Source: Candidatus Melainabacteria bacterium SSGW_16 (GTDB lineage: Bacteria > Cyanobacteriota > Vampirovibrionia > 2-02-FULL-35-15). Taken from it: a DNA stretch of 64,000 bases. Under the pieces are notes generated by a model. It was not told the DNA's origin and searched no databases. It saw only the letters and a list, made by a program, of their open reading frames with translations. The stretch lies in assembly GCA_004769085.1 (NCBI GenBank), contig DUDS01000044.1:44670-108669 (forward strand), read 5' to 3'. Every line of letters begins with the position of its first letter. The stretch's first letter is position 1. The translations under genes were made by a program, and so were the position numbers. Shown here piece by piece: positions 1,147-60,740 of the stretch.

Positions 1147-1806
1147 ATGCAAACAATGCAAAAAAGTTTAGATGAGATCTACCAAGAAAATCTCCAGTTC
1201 TGGGATAAAGCCTGGCAAAGAGTAAGCAAACCTCATAAGGAGCTACCAAAGCTTCCTTATATACATGAGCTTACAAGAAAATTGAAAAAATACCAGGTTA
1301 AAAAAGTCCTGGATCTTGGATGTGGTTCTGGATGGCTTTCTATATTCATTTCTAAATACGGTTTTGATGTAACAGGAATTGATGCTTCAAAACCTGCTAT
1401 TGATCTTGGAAAAATATGGGCAGAAGAAGAAAATCTGAATGTAAATTTTCTGGCGTGTGATTTGCTGAATATTCCTTTTAAGGAAAATTCCTTTGATGCA
1501 ATTGTTTGTAATTCAGTGTTGGAACATTTCCGGTTTGATCAGGCAAAGATTATATTTGAAACAATTCATAAAATACTTAGTGAGAAAGGGTTCTTGTTTG
1601 GTTGTTTTGATAAGGTAGGGACAGGAAAAGGTGAATACTTTGAACTTGAAGATTCTACTCATATTTATACAGATGAAATCAGGAAAGGCATGATGCTCAG
1701 AAATTACTCTGATGAAGAGCTAAAAACACTAATGAAAGACTTTGATATACTGTCGTTTGATAAAAATAGCTATGGAAGCAGATTAGTCTGGACAAGGAAG
1801 AAATAA
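1147..1806 (+). CDS. Class I SAM-dependent methyltransferase (small-molecule or RNA type, not a DNA MTase).
   Basis: 219 aa with a VLDLGCGSGW motif (SAM-binding motif I). Start codon ATG. Confidence 0.7.
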   Translation: MQTMQKSLDEIYQENLQFWDKAWQRVSKPHKELPKLPYIHELTRKLKKYQVKKVLDLGCGSGWLSIFISKYGFDVTGIDASKPAIDLGKIWAEEENLNVNFLACDLLNIPFKENSFDAIVCNSVLEHFRFDQAKIIFETIHKILSEKGFLFGCFDKVGTGKGEYFELEDSTHIYTDEIRKGMMLRNYSDEELKTLMKDFDILSFDKNSYGSRLVWTRKK

Positions 1807-9911: not shown

Positions 9912-9981
9912 CCACCTAATTGTATGAAATTGCTTAACCCTCGGAGTAGTAATAATATAACAACAACCTCTTCTAAAGAAA

Positions 9982-10094
9982 GGTTTTGTTCAATTTATTT
10001 GACAAAACCTGTAACCCGTTAAATTTAGTCTATATTAAGTGGACTATGGAAAGGTGGCGAGTCTCATTATGAGCGAGCCACCTGAGTAAAAAAC
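9982..10094 (+). promoter_or_regulatory. GC-rich leader element, copy R1a, upstream of the 113-aa ORF. It has three parts: a hairpin GGUUUUGUC/GACAAAACC at 9982-10009, then CCUGUAAC...AUAUUAAGUGG, then UAUGGAAAGGUGGCG...GCCACCUGAGUAAAAAA containing a 6-codon mini-ORF.
   Basis: Near-identical to the copy at 60490-60534 on the other strand. The mini-ORF ATGAGCGAGCCACCTGAGTAA spans 10069-10089. This is a GC island in AT-rich intergenic DNA. Confidence 0.6.
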
Positions 10095-10216
10095 ACATAA
10101 CATTAAATAGATTTAATCAATAATTCACAAGTCTTTAGAAGTCTAGTACAAATTCACTGTCAAAATATAGACAGATTTTACCTTATATATTCACAAGGAA
10201 GAGAAAGGTTACAAAA

Positions 10217-18479: not shown

Positions 18480-18612
18480 AACAACCTAAATACTTTAACA
18501 ATCTTTAAAAAGTCTTTCTACAGCATTGATGTAATGTAATATATTATATTAATCATGCAACGCAACTACTCAGCTACCACAATAATCTATTAGTAAACAG
18601 TCAACATGGAAA

Positions 18613-18719
18613 GGTTTTGACGATTCATTCGTCAAAACCTGTATAATATTACAAGTGGCAGACCGTGAGCACTTTGCAAAGCCGACAAGCGAAGAATGAG
18701 CGAGGAAGGCGGTGAGTAA
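18613..18719 (+). promoter_or_regulatory. GC-rich leader element, copy R2a, upstream of the aldolase-like gene. It contains, in order: a hairpin GGUUUUGACG-AUUCAUU-CGUCAAAACC; an extended -10-like TGTATAAT; AUUACAAGUGG; then UUUGCAAAGCC...GCGAAGAAUGAGCGAGGAAGGCGGUGAGUAA.
   Basis: The hairpin spans 18613-18639. A possible sigma-70 promoter is TTGACG (18617-18622), a 19-nt spacer, then TG-TATAAT (18640-18647). The mini-ORF ATGAGCGAGGAAGGCGGTGAGTAA (18696-18719) ends 5 nt before the main ATG. The element is paralogous to 34723-34833 on the minus strand. Confidence 0.6.
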
Positions 18720-18724
18720 TTACC

Positions 18725-19648
18725 ATGCAACAAATAACAGAACACTCTTCTGAAACAAAATGCAGAGAAGATTTAACTAAGGTCTGTAACCTTTTATATA
18801 TAAAGGGCCTGATTTCCGGGTTTGATGGAAACATAAGTTTAAAGTCTGATGAAAGAACAATTCTTATCACACCTTTAAACACACATAAAGGGTTAATAAA
18901 ACCTGAGCAATTCACAAAAGTAGATATTAGCGGAGAAATCATATCAGGTGGAAAACCATCCTCAGAACTTGACATTCATCTTGAAGCATATAAAAAAAGA
19001 CCTGATATAAACGCAATTATTCATGCACACCCCCCAACACTTATTTCACTTACTGTAAGCGGAATGAACCTGGATGAGCCTTTAATTCCTGATGTTATTA
19101 ATAATCTTGGCAGTATACCAACAGTACCTTACCCTGGGACAGATAAAGAAAAAGAAAAATCACTTATAGTATCAAGTTTAGAAAATCATGATGCAATTAT
19201 TCTGGAACGTCACGGTGCAGTTACAGTAGGAAGTGATATTTACAGAGCTTTGCACTATACAGAGTTGCTTGAATTTGCTGCAAAGATCATGTTCAATGCA
19301 AAGATTGCTGGTGAGATTTTTCCACTTGATAAATCACAAATAAAAGAAATTTTAAATGAAAGAGAGAAAGCCTGTGGCAGAAATATTGATACAAAATCAG
19401 AATTAAATAATTACTGTAAACATAAAAATAAATTTAATTTAAAGAATCTATTTGCAAAATTATTTGAAGGAAACTCACTGGTATTTCAGAGAATTCTATG
19501 TCTTATAAATGAACTTAATCTGTCAGTCATTTCAAGGACAAGCTATGCAAGTAAACTTACCCATCTGGAAAGAGAAGAATTATCGAGAGAACTGACAGCC
19601 TCATTTATTGGAATGCTGATTGGAAGATTTACAGGTAAAAAGCTTTAA
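18725..19648 (+). CDS. Class II aldolase/adducin-family protein (MtnB/fuculose-phosphate-aldolase-like) with an about 100-aa C-terminal extension.
   Basis: The metal-binding pattern of the aldolase II fold (E...H.H ... IIHAHPP ... ERHGAVTVG) is recognisable in the first 210 aa. Confidence 0.6.
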   Translation: MQQITEHSSETKCREDLTKVCNLLYIKGLISGFDGNISLKSDERTILITPLNTHKGLIKPEQFTKVDISGEIISGGKPSSELDIHLEAYKKRPDINAIIHAHPPTLISLTVSGMNLDEPLIPDVINNLGSIPTVPYPGTDKEKEKSLIVSSLENHDAIILERHGAVTVGSDIYRALHYTELLEFAAKIMFNAKIAGEIFPLDKSQIKEILNEREKACGRNIDTKSELNNYCKHKNKFNLKNLFAKLFEGNSLVFQRILCLINELNLSVISRTSYASKLTHLEREELSRELTASFIGMLIGRFTGKKL

Positions 19649-27855: not shown

Positions 27856-28863
27856 TTATTTTATTTCAATACTAAAATCTTCTATTACAGGGTTTGCTAA
27901 AAGCCTCTCACACATTTCATTAACAATTTTCTTGACTTCAGCAGGCGAATCTGCATCAATTTTAAAAACAACTTCTTTTCCTATTCTAAGTTCCGATATA
28001 TCCTTATAACCAAGCGAGCTTAAAGCTTTTTCAACAGCTTGCCCCTGTGGATCAAGGATATCTTTTTTAGGAAGAACCTGAACTTTAACTGAATACTTCG
28101 TACTTTTGTTATTCCGAACTGAAGGGGAGGCAATAAGACTTTTAGAACCTTCTTTTACTCTTTTAAGCATTTCCTGATAAGCACCTTCTACATTTCCCAG
28201 GTCCTGCCTGAAGCGGTCCTTATCAAGTTTTTCATTTGTTTTTGCATCCCAGAATCTAAAATTATCGGGAGATAATTCATCTGCTAATAACAACTCTCCA
28301 TTCTTATCCGTACCAAATTCAAGTTTAAAATCAACAACCTTTATTCCAACTCCAATAAAAAACTCCTTAAAGATTTCATTTGCTTTTAGTGCAAGACTTG
28401 TAATTTCATCGAGTATTTTGTCATCAGCCACTTCAAGTGCATCTTTAATATATGCACGGGTAAGCAATGGATCACCAAGTGCATCATCCTTATAACTAAA
28501 CTCAACAATAGGATTTTTAAGTATTTTACCTTCTTTTATACCTAATCTTTTACACAAACTCCCTGCAGTAATATTTCTAACAATAACTTCTAGAGGAATA
28601 ATTTTTACTTTTTTAATTAAAAGTTCATTCTCTGAGATTTGTTTTATAAAATGTGTTTTAATTCCACTTTTTTCACAAAGCTCAAAAAGATAAGCAGAAA
28701 TAGTAGCATTTACTTTTCCTTTGTCGTGAATTTCGCCTTTTTTCTGGGCATTAAAAGCAGTAGCGCTGTCTCTAAAGTAGGCCCGCATAACAGAAGGATC
28801 ATCAGTTTCAAATAAATCCTTTGCCTTGCCTGAATAAACTGGTTTTGTGGAAACAACTGGCAT
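27856..28863 (-). CDS. purC: SAICAR synthetase fused to a C-terminal PurS domain (FGAM synthase PurS subunit).
   Basis: N-terminal about 235 aa has PurC motifs (YSGKAKDLF, ...EVIVRN...). The C-terminal about 80 aa, VKVQVLPKKDILDPQGQAVEKALSSLGY...MCERLLANPVIEDFSIE, is a clear PurS sequence. Confidence 0.85.
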   Translation of the reverse strand: MPVVSTKPVYSGKAKDLFETDDPSVMRAYFRDSATAFNAQKKGEIHDKGKVNATISAYLFELCEKSGIKTHFIKQISENELLIKKVKIIPLEVIVRNITAGSLCKRLGIKEGKILKNPIVEFSYKDDALGDPLLTRAYIKDALEVADDKILDEITSLALKANEIFKEFFIGVGIKVVDFKLEFGTDKNGELLLADELSPDNFRFWDAKTNEKLDKDRFRQDLGNVEGAYQEMLKRVKEGSKSLIASPSVRNNKSTKYSVKVQVLPKKDILDPQGQAVEKALSSLGYKDISELRIGKEVVFKIDADSPAEVKKIVNEMCERLLANPVIEDFSIEIK

Positions 28864-28892
28864 AAGAATATTTTATCTCCATGCATCAACAG

Positions 28893-29030
28893 GTGTGTAA
28901 ACAAACCACAGATGACTTAAGTAAGCTCATTTACCCATCAGGCTGAGCGACGAAGGGTGGTCCGTCAGTTCTTGGATAGAGGAGCGAAGCCGGATGCAGG
29001 TAAATGGGCTTACCCTTAAAGAATTTACAC
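28893..29030. promoter_or_regulatory. Conserved GC-rich structured element R3a in the 5' region of purC-purS. It is paralogous to 41937-42058.
   Basis: Nested inverted repeats: GTGTAAA/TTTACAC, CTTAAGTAAGC/GCTTACCCTTAAAG and CATTTACC/GGTAAATG. The core CCCATCAGGCTGAGCGACGAAGGG..TCCGTCAGTTCTTGGATAGAGGAGCGAAGCCGGATGCAGG is shared with the second copy. Confidence 0.6.
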
Positions 29031-34341: not shown

Positions 34342-34719
34342 TTATTCATCAAAATCCAGCACACCTTTAGTCCAGGCATAATAAAGACCAAGTGCCAGCA
34401 TAAATACAAAAATAAAAGCTTCAATAATTAAAAACATTCTGTTTGCTGTAACATCAAATATTACTGCCCACGGTACAAGAAAAACAAACTCAACATCAAA
34501 AACAATAAATATCAGTGCATAGAGATAGTATTTAATATCGTATTGGATTTTTGTTTCATGAAATACCTTTATTCCACATTCATATGGCTCAGTTTTTACC
34601 TGTGTAGGACTGTAAATCCCAAATATTCTTTGTATAACTGCTGAGAGAAGTAATAATGTTAAACCAAGTAAAAATCCAACTACAGTAAAAATTCCTATTT
34701 GCATAAGTTGGGATGACAT
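34342..34719 (-). CDS. nuoA: NADH-quinone oxidoreductase subunit A.
   Basis: 125 aa, three TM helices, PYECG motif. Confidence 0.85.
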   Translation of the reverse strand: MSSQLMQIGIFTVVGFLLGLTLLLLSAVIQRIFGIYSPTQVKTEPYECGIKVFHETKIQYDIKYYLYALIFIVFDVEFVFLVPWAVIFDVTANRMFLIIEAFIFVFMLALGLYYAWTKGVLDFDE

Positions 34720-34722
34720 TTT

Positions 34723-34833
34723 TTACCTACCGCCTTTCTCGCTCATTCTTCGCTTGTCAGGCTTTGCAATGTGCACTTAAAAGATACCTCTTTTCACACC
34801 TTTCAGATTTTACCGAATGAATCGGATAAAATC
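34723..34833 (-). promoter_or_regulatory. GC-rich leader element, copy R2b, directly upstream of nuoA. It has a hairpin GAUUUUAUCCG-AUUCAUU-CGGUAAAAUC, then UUUUAAGUGCACAUUGCAAAGCC, then GCGAAGAAUGAGCGAGAAAGGCGGUAGGUAA.
   Basis: The mini-ORF ATGAGCGAGAAAGGCGGTAGGTAA (34746-34723) stops 3 nt before the nuoA ATG. The hairpin stems differ from copy R2a but keep pairing, and the loop is identical. Confidence 0.6.
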
Positions 34834-34908
34834 TTCCTGCATAAATAGTCAAACCTGATATTGTTACCTAACCAGGTAGTAACAACAATTAATTTATATC
34901 ATACCTTA

Positions 34909-40813: not shown

Positions 40814-41959
40814 TTAGAATCCTAAGATCTTAGCAATCTTATCAATATCTGCTTCAACTTCATGTTCAGCAGTACCTGCATATTTAATAGCAGAATCAGG
40901 ATCTTTTAAACCATTACCAGTTAAGACGCAAACTACGGTTGATTCAGGAGCAATTTTTTTTGCTTTTGCACTTTTAATTAATCCAGCAACAGATGCAGCA
41001 CTAGCAGGTTCACATGCAACACCCTCCATTTGATGAAGGATTTTATATGATTCTATAATTTCCTCGTCTGTTACTACATCTATAAAGCCACCTGAATCTT
41101 TAGATGCCTGAACTGCCTGTTTCCAGCTGGCAGGATTTCCTATCCTGATTGCAGTAGCAATTGTTTCTGGTTTCTCAATAATTTTATTCTGAACAATTGG
41201 CGCTGCACCACTTGCTTCAAAACCAATCATCCTGGGTTTATCTTCTTTTATATATTCACAAAAACCTTTCCAGTAAGCAGTAATATTTCCTGCATTACCA
41301 ACAGGAATAGAAAGTATGTCAGGAGATCTGCCAAGCTGCTCACAAACTTCAAACGCTGCTGTTTTCTGTCCTTCTATTCTGAAGGGATTTAATGAGTTAA
41401 CCAGTGTCACTGGATATTTACTAACAATTTCTTTTACTAGTTTTAATGCTTCATCAAAATTACCTTTTACTTGAATTACTTTTGCACCATAAATCATTGC
41501 CTGAGATAGTTTACCTAAAGCAACATATCCTTTTGGTACAAGAACAAAACATTCCATCTTAAAACCATTTGCTCTTGCCCTGGCTGCATATGCAGCTGCA
41601 CTGGCACTGGTATTTCCTGTGCTTGCACAAATTATTGCTTGTGATTTTTCTTCTACTGCTTTACTTATTGCAACAGTCATTCCACGATCTTTAAAACTTC
41701 CTGTTGGATTTGCACCTTCTACTTTTAAATATACAGACAATCCTGGCACACCACATAATTTTGAAATATGGGATGCAAATACAAGCGGTGTATTTCCTTC
41801 ATTTAAAGTAACTATTGGTGTTTTGTTTGTGATAGGCAAATATGTCTGATAACAGTCAATTATGCCATTCCATGGCTGTGTAAAAATTGTGGATTTGGAT
41901 ATCACAAAGAAATATTTTAGCAGACTGGGCATGGATGAGCATTTAATGTGTGAGCCCAT
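40814..41959 (-). CDS. thrC: Threonine synthase (short, Bacillus-type). The annotated 5' end runs into the R3b element, so the real start is probably internal and may be non-ATG.
   Basis: [31 protein letters not shown] followed by the PLP-lysine [12 protein letters not shown] motif. Confidence 0.85.
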
Positions 41960-42058
41960 TTACCTACATCGGTCTTCGCTCCTCTATCCAAGAACTGACG
42001 GACCCTTCGTCGCTCAGCCTGATGGGTAAACGGCCTCACTTGTAATTTGTTTACACCC
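41937..42058. promoter_or_regulatory. Conserved GC-rich structured element R3b between the divergent thrC and purQ. It is paralogous to 28893-29030.
   Basis: It shares an about 80-nt core with R3a. The closing helix GUGAGCC-CAUUUACC ... GGUAAA-C-GGCCUCAC covaries relative to R3a (GUAAGC/GCUUAC becomes GAGCC/GGCCUC). The 3' tail UUUGUUUACAC.CC is conserved in purQ/purC sense. Confidence 0.6.
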
Positions 42059-42065
42059 CTTAAAA

Positions 42066-42767
42066 ATGCTAAAATTAAACTGTATGAAATTCTCAGTAAT
42101 AATATTTCCAGGTTCAAACTGCGATGAAGACTGTATTCATGTGCTAAAAAATGTGCTCGGTCAGGAAGTAAATAAAGTTTTTCATACTGAAGAAAAGCTC
42201 CTAAAGACAGACTGTGTAGTTATACCAGGAGGATTCAGCTATGGCGATTATCTAAGATCAGGAGCTATAGCCAGGTTTTCAAATATTATTAATCCAATAA
42301 TAGATTTTGCTAACAAGGGCGGCTTAGTAATTGGTACTTGTAACGGTTTTCAAATTTTGTGTGAGGCAGGGTTATTACCTGGTGCGCTCACAACCAATAA
42401 ATCTCTAAGTTTTATTTGCGATGAAGTGTATCTTAAAATATCAAACAGTAAAACAAAATTTACAAGTGAATACAGAAATAATGAAATAATCAGACTACCA
42501 ATAGCGCATGGAGATGGACGTTATATTACAAAAGATTTAAACAAAGAACAAATCATATTTCAGTACTGCAGCAAAGATGGAATTATCAATGATAATTTTA
42601 ATCCGAACGGATCTACTGAGAATATTGCAGGAATAATAAATAAAAAAGGGAACGTGCTTGGAATGATGCCACATCCTGAAAGAGCATGTGAATCCATATT
42701 AGGGAATGAAGATGGAAAAAAACTATTTGCAAGTCTAATTAGCTCATCTATTGCCCTTGTACATTAA
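42066..42767 (+). CDS. purQ: Phosphoribosylformylglycinamidine synthase subunit PurQ (glutaminase).
   Basis: 233 aa. [14 protein letters not shown], the catalytic GTCNGFQIL cysteine motif, and the C-terminal MMPHPER. Confidence 0.9.
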
Positions 42768-44133
42768 AGAACAGATTTTTTTCAATTTGAATGTTATTGG
42801 CATATTTTGCTTTTGCAAGATTTACAGCAGCTTCTGTATTGAGAAGTCCATTACCAAACACAAAATCTTTTCCTGGCTCTCCTAAATCTTCTGCAGACTG
42901 AAACAGTATTTGCCTGACATCCTCAGAAGAAATATCCGGAGCAACAGACCAAATTAATGCTGCTGTTCCAGCTACCTGTGGAGCAGCAAATGATGTTCCT
43001 GAAACTGAGGAATACCCTGAATAAAGTGAAGTGGTATAAATAGATGCTCCAGGTGCTACAAGGGAAACATGATCTCCCAGGGTACTATATGATTCAATTT
43101 TCTTACTGGAATTTACTGCACCAACACCTATAACACCTTCAAATGCTGCCGGGTACCTAACTTCTCTCTCACCTGTATTTCCCGCAGTGGATATAATGAG
43201 TATCCCTCTTTCATTTGCTTCCTGAACTGAATCTTTCAAAACCTGTGAGAACTGACTTGTACTTAAGCTGATTTGTACAATTTTAACTCCTTCAGTATAT
43301 GTACGGTCTAACGCTTCAACCACTGTTGAAACCCTGGCCTGACCATACTCATCTGTTACCTTTATAGGTAATATTTTTGTATTCCATGAAACTCCAGCTA
43401 TACCCTGTTTATTATTTGTATTTGCTGCTATTATTCCGGATACTTCAGTTCCATGACCGATAGCATCGTTTTTGTCTTCCGGTAGAAGATTTTCACTCCC
43501 AAATATTTTTCCTTCCAAATCAGGGTGATTAGCATCAACGCCTGTATCCAGCACACCAACTACCAGCGAATTGCCTTTTGTTGTACCCCATGCTTTTGGT
43601 GCATTTATTTGTCTTAAATAGTATTGGGATGAAAAGTCACTGTCATTTGGTGTTATTTCAAGTTGATCATTCAAAACATCTCCCTCTTTTATATCATTTA
43701 CATTTTCTGCAATGTTGTTACTTTCTCCCTGTGCATTTTCATCTCTTATATTTATCTTTATGTAATTTCTCTCGTCAGAAATCTCATCCAGATAAAATTT
43801 ATAATCAGGTTCTACTGTTTTAAACAAACCGCTATTTTTTAATTCCTGTATCTTAGCAACTTTATCTTCTGAGCTGCTTAAAGGAATAACAAAGAGATTA
43901 CTTTTTACTTTTCTGTAACCAACAATTCCTGCTCTGTACATAAGCCTGTCAAGTCTCCTTCCTCGTTGAGCTTCACTAGAAGGAACAACAATCAATGAAT
44001 CATAATCATCTTCAGAATTTTCTTTTGCACTAACAGCTGAAAAACCAGGTAAAAAAGAAAAAGCAAGAAGTAAAAAGCACATTAATACCCTTAGTGCCTG
44101 TAACTTCCTGCCTGTTACTTTGTAATTTGTCAT
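42748..44133 (-). CDS. Secreted S8-family (subtilisin-like) serine peptidase.
   Basis: Catalytic triad motifs [17 protein letters not shown] and [11 protein letters not shown]. Signal peptide after the [25 protein letters not shown] start. The table's start at 44190 lies inside a GC-rich leader. Confidence 0.85.
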
Positions 44134-44260
44134 TGTTTTGATTCGGTAACCCAGCTGCCCGTTCCGGGCCTGTAGCTTTGCGTCCTGCAATTCCTTGCAG
44201 TTTGCCCTTTCGTCAAAGGCTTAAAAATTAAGCCAAAAAAAACAAAAGTTACTTAAAGTA
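44134..44260 (-). promoter_or_regulatory. GC-rich structured 5' leader of the S8 peptidase gene.
   Basis: In gene sense it shows three hairpins: GGCUUAAUUUUUAAGCC, CUGCAA-GGAA-UUGCAG (GNRA-like loop), and GCCCG-GAA-CGGGC. It is purine-rich with GCAAAGC and GACGAAAGGG motifs shared with the other leaders. Confidence 0.45.
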
Positions 44261-53373: not shown

Positions 53374-53503
53374 CGAGGATTTTCTGACTTGAAAATCCTC
53401 GCATCGTAAAGTAATGTAGAGAAATAGCTGAGGAGTCATCGTAGTTCCTTATAAAATATAACCAACGAAGATGCGACGAAGCGTAAAAAAAAATTATGTC
53501 TAA
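53374..53503 (+). promoter_or_regulatory. GC-rich structured 5' leader of the Mce/MlaD gene, with a 10-codon overlapping mini-ORF.
   Basis: Perfect hairpin CGAGGAUUUUC-UGACUUG-AAAAUCCUCG (53374-53401). A GAUGCGACGAAGCG motif. The mini-ORF ATGCGACGAAGCGTAAAAAAAAATTATGTCTAA (53471-53503) ends 5 nt past the main ATG. Confidence 0.45.
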
Positions 53504-60458: not shown

Positions 60459-60489
60459 AAATTAATTAATTTAATTCTCAAATATTTTT

Positions 60490-60595
60490 TTACTCAGGTG
60501 GCTTGCTCATAATTCGCTGCGCCACCTTTCCATACTACTCCTGGTAAACCAAATCCTCCACAATTCAGGTTTTGCGGAATGAATCGGTCAAAACC
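60490..60595 (-). promoter_or_regulatory. GC-rich leader element, copy R1b, upstream of the 1203-aa ORF: a hairpin GGUUUUGACCG-AUUCAUU-CCGCAAAACC followed by the UAUGGAAAGGUGGCG...GCCACCUGAGUAAAAAAA module.
   Basis: In minus sense it reads tatggaaaggtggcgcagcgaattatgagcaagccacctgagtaaaaaaa, which matches 10045-10094 with the differences concentrated in the hairpin loop. The mini-ORF ATGAGCAAGCCACCTGAGTAA spans 60510-60490. Confidence 0.6.
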
Positions 60596-60740
60596 TTCTC
60601 TAATTAATTAGTTTATTTTAATTACCATCGACATAACTGAGTAATTATTTAAAACATTAAACTCAAAACATTCTATATCCTGTTATAAATTAAAATGTTA
60701 AAAACGAATCACACATTAGAAAGAGCAATAAAGATTAAAT

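Follow-up and report, generated by a model that had tools for sequence, protein, structure and literature searches.

The GC-rich leaders that carry recurrent mini-ORFs upstream of four genes in the 64-kb stretch of DNA analysed here (the window) are homologous copies of one non-coding repeat, which very probably constitutes a family of MITEs inserted just upstream of genes. The value of this assignment is chiefly that of a correction: as transposon copies, the GC-rich "leaders" of this AT-rich genome do not warrant annotation as leader peptides, riboswitches or conserved 5′ UTRs. By sequence comparison, the mini-ORFs themselves appear to be accidental by-products of the MITE copies, with no conserved coding unit.

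Anatomy of the repeat and its copies in the window

Members of the family are 161–168 bp long, within the range of about 50–500 bp typical of MITEs, and contain no long ORF, only non-conserved frames of at most 12 codons. The repeat unit begins and ends with 13 nt that are inverted complements of each other, giving terminal inverted repeats (TIRs) of the form 5′ GTTACTRCCTAGC ... GGTAGGTAGAAAC 3′. Read from 5′ to 3′, a unit of about 164 bp comprises GTTACTRCCTAGCTAGCGTAATATTTCTAAGTAAATGACTTATA, a hairpin (P1), a variable spacer, AGCACTWTGGAAAG, a second hairpin (P3) and GGTAGGTAGAAAC; P1 is AT-rich (GATTTTATCCGATTTATTCGGTAAAATC) and P3 is GC-rich with a sequence specific to each subfamily. The four window sites have in common a RRTTTTR..ATTYATT..YAAAAYCTG hairpin, a variable stretch, TGSAAAG and a GC-rich stem around ATGAGCRAG. 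The inner stem of P3 takes the form GCGAA-(3 nt)-TGAGC in the window subfamilies and is GCTCA-TTCG-TGAGC, TTAC-TT-GTAA or an unrelated hairpin in other subfamilies, one of which has a long GCCGGTTTT...AAAACCGGC stem closed by the loop GGGAGYGCAGCGA.

A profile made from 41 copies identified exactly four copies in the 64-kb window, with E-values from 1e-22 to 1e-35 (Table 1), and in all four the mini-ORF occupies the 3′ part of the element. The 9-mer ATGAGCGAG by itself was weakly enriched (11 matches with at most one mismatch versus 6.3 expected, a count reached in 2 of 100 shuffles), so the recurrence of the mini-ORF sites needed a different explanation. The preliminary description of this DNA had reported that recurrence across several leaders; it is real in so far as the four sites are homologous repeats of about 165 nt according to nhmmer, but the "leaders" are not conserved, because the orthologous sites of close relatives lack the element. 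Downstream of copy 1 the class II aldolase gene is followed by hemA/hemC, and copy 4 also stands upstream of a polysaccharide-synthesis operon, a polysaccharide-export gene coming after the 113-aa ORF; the 1203-aa ORF downstream of copy 3 has no Pfam match.

A fifth leader, that of the Mce/MlaD gene, had been grouped with these four. The string reported for it is present at 53471, but the leader lies outside the repeat family: no nhmmer match to the repeat profile was obtained there even at E≤100 with filters off, which rules it out as a fifth copy. It has a perfect hairpin of its own in a divergent spacer, superficially similar to P1, but the profile search indicated no homology with the MITE.

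Table 1. Positions of the MITE copies, their parts and mini-ORFs, and of other features discussed in the text. Positions without a locus prefix are those of the window.
Feature	Position	Strand	Sequence or context	Basis
MITE copy 1, 162 bp	18562-18723	+	at start codon of class II aldolase	nhmmer E=1.9e-30, alignment
Copy 1, left TSD, 8 bp	18554-18561	+	CATGCAAC	identical 8-mer on each flank
Copy 1, 5′ TIR	18562-18574	+	GCAACTACTCAGC	sequence/alignment
Copy 1, hairpin P1	18613-18639	+		sequence/alignment
Copy 1, P3 stem	18681-18683 with 18708-18710	+	GCC pairs with GGC	sequence/alignment
Copy 1, mini-ORF	18696-18719	+	ATGAGCGAGGAAGGCGGTGAGTAA; MSEEGGE*; ends 5 nt from aldolase ATG (18725)	sequence, alignment
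Copy 1, 3′ TIR	18711-18723	+	GGTGAGTAATTAC	sequence/alignment
Copy 1, right TSD	18724-18731	+	CATGCAAC; includes aldolase start codon (18725-18727)	identical 8-mer
MITE copy 2, 165 bp	34719-34883	-	abuts nuoA start codon (34719-34717); no intact TSD	nhmmer E=1.4e-35
Copy 2, mini-ORF	34746-34723	-	ATGAGCGAGAAAGGCGGTAGGTAA; ends 3 nt from nuoA ATG (34719)	sequence
MITE copy 3, ~166 bp	60483-60648	-	before 1203-aa ORF (start 60458); ends projected from profile alignment	nhmmer E=4.6e-23
Copy 3, mini-ORF	60510-60490	-	ATGAGCAAGCCACCTGAGTAA; 31 nt upstream of 1203-aa ORF	sequence
MITE copy 4, ~165 bp	9932-10096	+	before 113-aa ORF (start 10217); ends projected, 5′ TIR degenerate	nhmmer E=2.1e-22
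Copy 4, mini-ORF	10069-10089	+	ATGAGCGAGCCACCTGAGTAA; 127 nt upstream of 113-aa ORF	sequence
123-bp family, copy	L084:709-831	-	ends GTTACTGYCTAGC...CGGTAGGTAGAAAC	
123-bp family, copy	L106:2118-2240	-	ends GTTACTGYCTAGC...CGGTAGGTAGAAAC	
123-bp family, copy	L082:~1245-1401	-	ends GTTACTGYCTAGC...CGGTAGGTAGAAAC	
Mce/MlaD leader hairpin	53376-53405	+	GCGAGGATTTTC-TGACTT-GAAAATCCTCGC	
c-di-GMP-I riboswitch	44142-44216	-	upstream of Peptidase_S8 gene	RF01051, 65.4 bits, E=1.5e-10
Subtilase-family (Peptidase_S8) gene	~42748-44100	-		
Second GC-rich repeat, copy	~28885-29030	-	core CTCCTCTATCCAAGAACTGACGGACC	
Second GC-rich repeat, copy	~41948-42058	+	core CTCCTCTATCCAAGAACTGACGGACC	

Evidence for transposition

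Every structural hallmark of a MITE that could be examined was found. Full copies are flanked by 8-bp duplications (TSDs) that are perfect (8/8) in 13 of 34 cases and match at 7/8 positions in a further seven, compared with 0% and 1.5%, respectively, when the left and right flanks of different copies were paired as a control. AT-rich 8-mers, such as AATTAATA, ATATTACA and TAAAATTT, make up the duplications. Against the MITE interpretation, an intact TSD is absent from three of the four window copies, although older copies are expected to lack one.

An uninterrupted target site was found at the orthologous locus L107, whose aldolase shares 84% amino acid identity with that of the window. Its short uvrB-aldolase spacer reads ...GTAATATATTAATCATGCAGCAAACAG... 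and contains the 8-mer CATGCAGC only once, with no element, and deletion of the MITE together with one TSD from the window produced a colinear alignment with L107 across the junction. At nuoA the upstream spacer of the window is 189 nt long, including the 165-bp element, while the distance from the AIM24-like gene to nuoA is 48–75 nt in relatives L112–L114 (NuoA 81–93% identical at the amino acid level) and 143 nt in L115. No significant profile match was found upstream of nuoA in L112–L115, the best having E=0.25 over 20 nt. This stretch (L112:421-440) reads AGGTAAGATTTTA...CTTTTGCAAA...CCGGCG and may represent the decayed remains of a MITE that had inserted there earlier; at its position in L115 (355-420) there is a run of short GTAGGT/GTAAG-like repeats.

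By this account a transposase supplied in trans would recognise the terminal repeats and cut with an 8-bp stagger, which would leave the observed 8-bp TSDs, and insertion would favour AT-rich DNA, judging by the composition of the duplicated 8-mers. A second family, 123 bp long, differs in its interior but shares the terminal repeats and the 8-bp length of the duplications (GATATTTA; TAGATATT/TAGACATT), and two families with the same ends and TSD length are as expected if non-autonomous elements use one transposase. In L082 a 123-bp element is arranged head-to-head with a 164-bp copy. An autonomous partner, with a transposase gene between the same TIRs, was not found in approximately 400 kb of related loci; the neighbours of truncated copies (L054 and L074) and of solo TIR matches (L013 and L094) are ordinary genes (P-type ATPase, KdpD, radical-SAM, TetR-like and glycosyltransferase-like) and not transposases.

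Distribution beyond the window

Relatives of the repeat were gathered by scanning one genome per species with the P1 pattern, which returned at least 103 stretches. Among the matches listed, about half came from groundwater MAGs of Candidatus Melainabacteria, one of which contributed at least 15 loci; the remaining P1-pattern matches were due to chance and had no downstream motifs. A profile search recovered more than 50 copies among Melainabacteria loci. The window itself comes from this lineage: one of its proteins is 80.7% identical to the protein of a Melainabacteria locus, and all named homologs of its aldolase, PurC-PurS and NuoA belong to Melainabacteria. The closest aldolase homolog (P0001) shares 98% identity.

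Near-identical class B copies of MAG JACOTS01 lie 5–60 nt from contig ends (L014, L022, L037, L056, L079 and L094), and the aldolase contigs L002 and L003 begin inside the element, 31 nt upstream of the gene. The repeat, with several copies so close to contig ends, evidently disrupts the short-read assembly of Melainabacteria MAGs; in practice it can also displace the starts called for genes. The end of a contig labelled Candidatus Peregrinibacteria likewise carries a genuine 5′ half of the MITE (L067:3-88, JACPXZ010000016; nhmmer E=1e-19), which could reflect mis-binning or horizontal transfer.

Placement, orientation and start codons

The copies are not placed evenly with respect to genes. 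According to a crude ORF-based gene call, on which all placement counts rest, 15 copies between tandem genes are co-oriented with them and 2 are anti-oriented (binomial p=0.002), and 19 copies lie in divergent spacers versus 2 in convergent ones (binomial p=0.0002). Within divergent spacers the median distance is 22 nt between the 3′ end of the element and the downstream start, versus 112 nt between its 5′ end and the other gene, the 3′ end being the nearer in 14 of 19 cases (p=0.06). Such a bias in placement and orientation is not predicted for a selfish element that inserts at random, and so points to selection or to a targeting preference; selection against the reverse orientation and co-option of the 3′ end are two hypotheses for its cause. 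A third, in which P3 followed by TTT would act as an intrinsic terminator in reverse orientation, gained no support from a terminator scan. That insertions on or within a few bases of the starts of essential genes, in one orientation, are tolerated is a point of interest in its own right.

TSDs that contain ATG occur at window positions 18724-18731 and in L070, L082 and L104 (CATGCAAC, ATGAAATG, AAAAATG and ATGATTTA). At three sites the duplicated ATG serves as the start of the gene downstream, so the start codon itself has repeatedly been hit by insertions. As copies land in or beside the AT-rich stretch before the start, the 3′ end of the element forms the last 0–30 nt of the 5′ UTRs of aldolase and nuoA, and the sequence directly before the start is now element-derived in both genes (GGAAGGCGGTGAGTAATTAC-CATG for aldolase and AAAGGCGGTAGGTAAAAA-ATG for nuoA). 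The empty aldolase site of L107 (TAATATATTAATCATG) contains no SD-like sequence, which makes it reasonable to suppose that the purine-rich GGCGGTGAG/GGCGGTAGG of the element may act as a ribosome-binding site for aldolase and nuoA.

A tentative addition to the MITE interpretation, which we regard as possible though rather unlikely, is therefore that retained copies have been co-opted as portable 5′-UTR or translation-initiation cassettes: the ribosome-binding site, and perhaps a structure-dependent control, would come from the 3′ end (GGCGGTAGG/GGCGGTGAG), which is partly enclosed in P3, and only co-oriented insertions upstream of genes would survive. The insertion has cut the aldolase gene off from its former upstream sequence and the element provides an SD-like GGTGAG at 8 nt spacing from the ATG, where the empty site has nothing similar; the nuoA ATG directly abuts the element, and the 15:2 ratio in tandem spacers and the medians in divergent ones agree with such a role. 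However, many copies lie 20–110 nt from the start, some of them followed by the gene's own AAGGAG (e.g. L019), and, with ends that are inverted repeats, an element in reverse orientation would offer a similar TAGGTAG. Consensus scans revealed neither a promoter nor a terminator, no consistent -10 element is present, and the asymmetry of 14 out of 19 reaches only p=0.06. If the element does supply a working ribosome-binding site, it would be a natural case of transposon-driven rewiring of translation initiation.

A more far-reaching version of the same proposal we consider improbable. Here the element would be a portable structured 5′-UTR cassette surviving only in co-orientation at gene starts, its 3′ end would replace a native SD-less region, P3 would half-sequester the SD-like GGCGG, and unrelated genes (Nuo, heme/aldolase, polysaccharide export and others) would thereby share a post-transcriptional control. 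The possibility that P1 is a palindrome of a promoter or operator, with an internal extended -10, was also considered and rejected: a usable -10 is present in only a minority of copies, the consensus scans were negative, and the P1 bulge is asymmetric.

Secondary structure and the possibility of a regulatory RNA

The two hairpins raise the alternative that the element is primarily a structured cis-regulatory RNA conserved upstream of a regulon (a riboswitch, a thermosensor or a protein-binding leader) whose repeat-like appearance is secondary. Across the alignment of 41 copies, pairing is maintained in 99% of cells for P1, 95% for P3 and 75% for the terminal repeats, although the conservation of P1 is built in by the collection of copies through the P1 pattern, so that it cannot be used for or against any reading, and related copies inflate the counts. 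Changes on both sides of a pair were seen at 5 of 12 pairs in P1, 5 of 5 in P3 and 10 of 12 in the TIRs (20 of 29 overall), the last exemplified by TACTCA/TGAGTA in the aldolase copy versus GTAACTATTCAGGT/ACCTGAATAGTAAC in another subfamily. The folding energies of the element regions were below those of shuffled sequences (z from -2.3 to -4.9), the copies lie near the starts of downstream genes and in their orientation, and the 3′ strand of P3 overlaps the purine-rich SD-like stretch, all of which would suit a regulatory RNA.

Nonetheless, we judge this alternative very unlikely. Copies are flanked by TSDs and orthologous loci provide empty sites; copies of the same genome are near-identical including their loops; and the genes that follow the copies have unrelated functions (aldolase/heme, nuoA, polysaccharide export, KdpB-like ATPase, MiaB-like and TetR-like). 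Mismatches of the G-T type, which would pair as G-U in RNA, show little excess over A-C mismatches (4 versus 3 in P1, 10 versus 3 in P3 and 45 versus 37 in the TIRs), and do not clearly indicate selection acting on one RNA strand; the near balance in the TIRs means that the terminal repeats behave as a feature of the DNA. A known RNA family can be ruled out for the element, as Rfam 15 gave no match at the element copies when the window was searched at the gathering score and no meaningful match to positions 18500-18760 at E≤10. An attenuator-like switch between the 5′ strand of P3 and an upstream AACCGG was discarded, being confined to one subfamily and not conserved.

Mini-ORFs are not conserved within the family

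The preliminary description had offered the mini-ORFs as translated leader peptides (uORFs), acting on the downstream gene through translational coupling or through stalling at Pro-Pro-Glu, or else as part of a conserved RNA or DNA motif that contains ATG by chance. All four mini-ORFs were found (Table 1). They share ATG-AGC-GAG/AAG, two have stops 3–5 nt before the main ATG, and in class B copies a GGAAAGGTGG stretch precedes the mini-ORF ATG by 11 nt, as might be expected of translated frames. Yet in the homologous start column of the 41 aligned copies ATG occurs in 12, GTG in 5 and a non-start triplet in 24 (CAG in 13, TAG in 4, GTA in 3, and ATA, AGC, AGA and CCA in one each), with ATA in the nearest relative of the class A copies. 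Among ATG copies beyond the window, one has a frame of two codons (ATG AGC TAG), four have frames of more than 9–12 codons with no stop within the element, and the others have 6–7 codons; the range is thus 2 to more than 12 codons among ATG copies and 0 to more than 12 across the family. The comparison of homologs that had been proposed, for preservation of the frame, shows a nucleotide motif that is kept and a frame that is broken, and with start and frame both varying among the 41 copies neither translational coupling nor a Pro-Pro-Glu stalling motif finds support.

The position of the frames within the element is also at odds with a coding role. The mini-ORF ATG is made up of the A-U closing pair of the inner P3 stem and the two bases that open the 3′ strand of that stem, and the stop codons, TAA from GAGTAA or TAG from GGTAGGTAG, both fall within the 3′ terminal repeat. 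In copy 1 the ATG lies in the P3 loop and inner stem, codons 5–7 fall in the 3′ strand of P3 and the 3′ TIR, and the stop TAA is inside that TIR. Two of the four window mini-ORFs end 31 and 127 nt from the main ORF, and aldolase and nuoA of close relatives have no upstream element at all. The comparison of copies thus appears largely to refute the leader-peptide interpretation, which we hold to be extremely unlikely. Under the MITE interpretation the mini-ORF would be a by-product of one subfamily's sequence, ATGAGC being the 3′ strand of its inner P3 stem. The alternative of a motif containing ATG by chance was right in spirit, with the amendment that the motif belongs to a transposable repeat. 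The further claim that either situation would be unusual for intergenic DNA fails because MITEs are common in bacterial intergenic DNA (PMC10969869).

Comparison with known repeats

By analogy, the element appears to behave like the Correia/ERIC/BOX class of bacterial intergenic repeats. There is ample documentation of MITEs that lie upstream of genes and provide them with promoters, RNase III sites or other signals, and the Correia elements of Neisseria (CREE/NEMIS), the archetypal bacterial MITEs, resemble the present family in being non-coding, 100–200 bp long, bounded by TIRs and TSDs and present in many copies per genome, and in lying mostly right upstream of genes, where they join 5′ UTRs and can form long hairpins (PMC10969869). 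There is no sequence similarity between the two; Correia TIRs are about 26 nt long versus 13 nt here, and neither a sigma-70 promoter nor an IHF site could be shown in the Melainabacteria MITE. The TSD of Correia elements is TA, compared with 8 bp in the Melainabacteria MITE. The latter is further set apart by its marked single-orientation bias and its different host lineage.

The ERIC/IRU repeats of enterobacteria and the BOX/RUP repeats of pneumococci are likewise intergenic hairpin repeats that are transcribed (putatively so here), with subfamilies that differ by modules, as in the P3 module swapped here. To our knowledge, ERIC and BOX are generally without clear TSDs or empty-site evidence of recent transposition, whereas 20 of 34 copies of the Melainabacteria MITE have 8-bp TSDs matching at 8/8 or 7/8 positions. 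Leader peptides and uORFs involved in attenuation or ErmCL-type stalling also place a short ORF close upstream of the main ORF, but there the start, frame and critical residues are conserved in orthologous leaders; none of these is conserved for the mini-ORFs of the MITE, and at orthologous genes the sequence itself is absent. Likened by description only, the cyanobacterial MITEs (Nezha, and those of Microcystis) are elements of the same kind in a sister lineage (PMC10969869). We found no published description of MITEs in Melainabacteria in the literature, and no Rfam entry.

Other repeats and features of the window

The sole Rfam match in the window was a c-di-GMP-I riboswitch, situated upstream of a gene of the subtilase family (Table 1). 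Besides the MITE, the window contains two copies of a second GC-rich repeat with a long stem and a 26-nt identical core; one copy closely precedes a purC-purS fusion gene and the other a purQ-like GATase_5 gene, each in the orientation of its gene. This repeat has no Rfam match, and its interpretation as a purine riboswitch is ruled out by the ortholog L108 (90% identical), which has only 22 nt between nuoD and purC-purS. A window copy is bracketed by GTTGATG and has inverted ends like TGTGTAAA, and the repeat is probably another MITE family. The mechanically listed starts of the ORFs at 27856-28863(-) and 40814-41959(-) probably overshoot: purC-purS more likely starts, as it does in L108, at the ATGCCAGTT about 22 nt downstream of 28863, and the listed start of the PALP-enzyme ORF falls inside the second GC-rich repeat.
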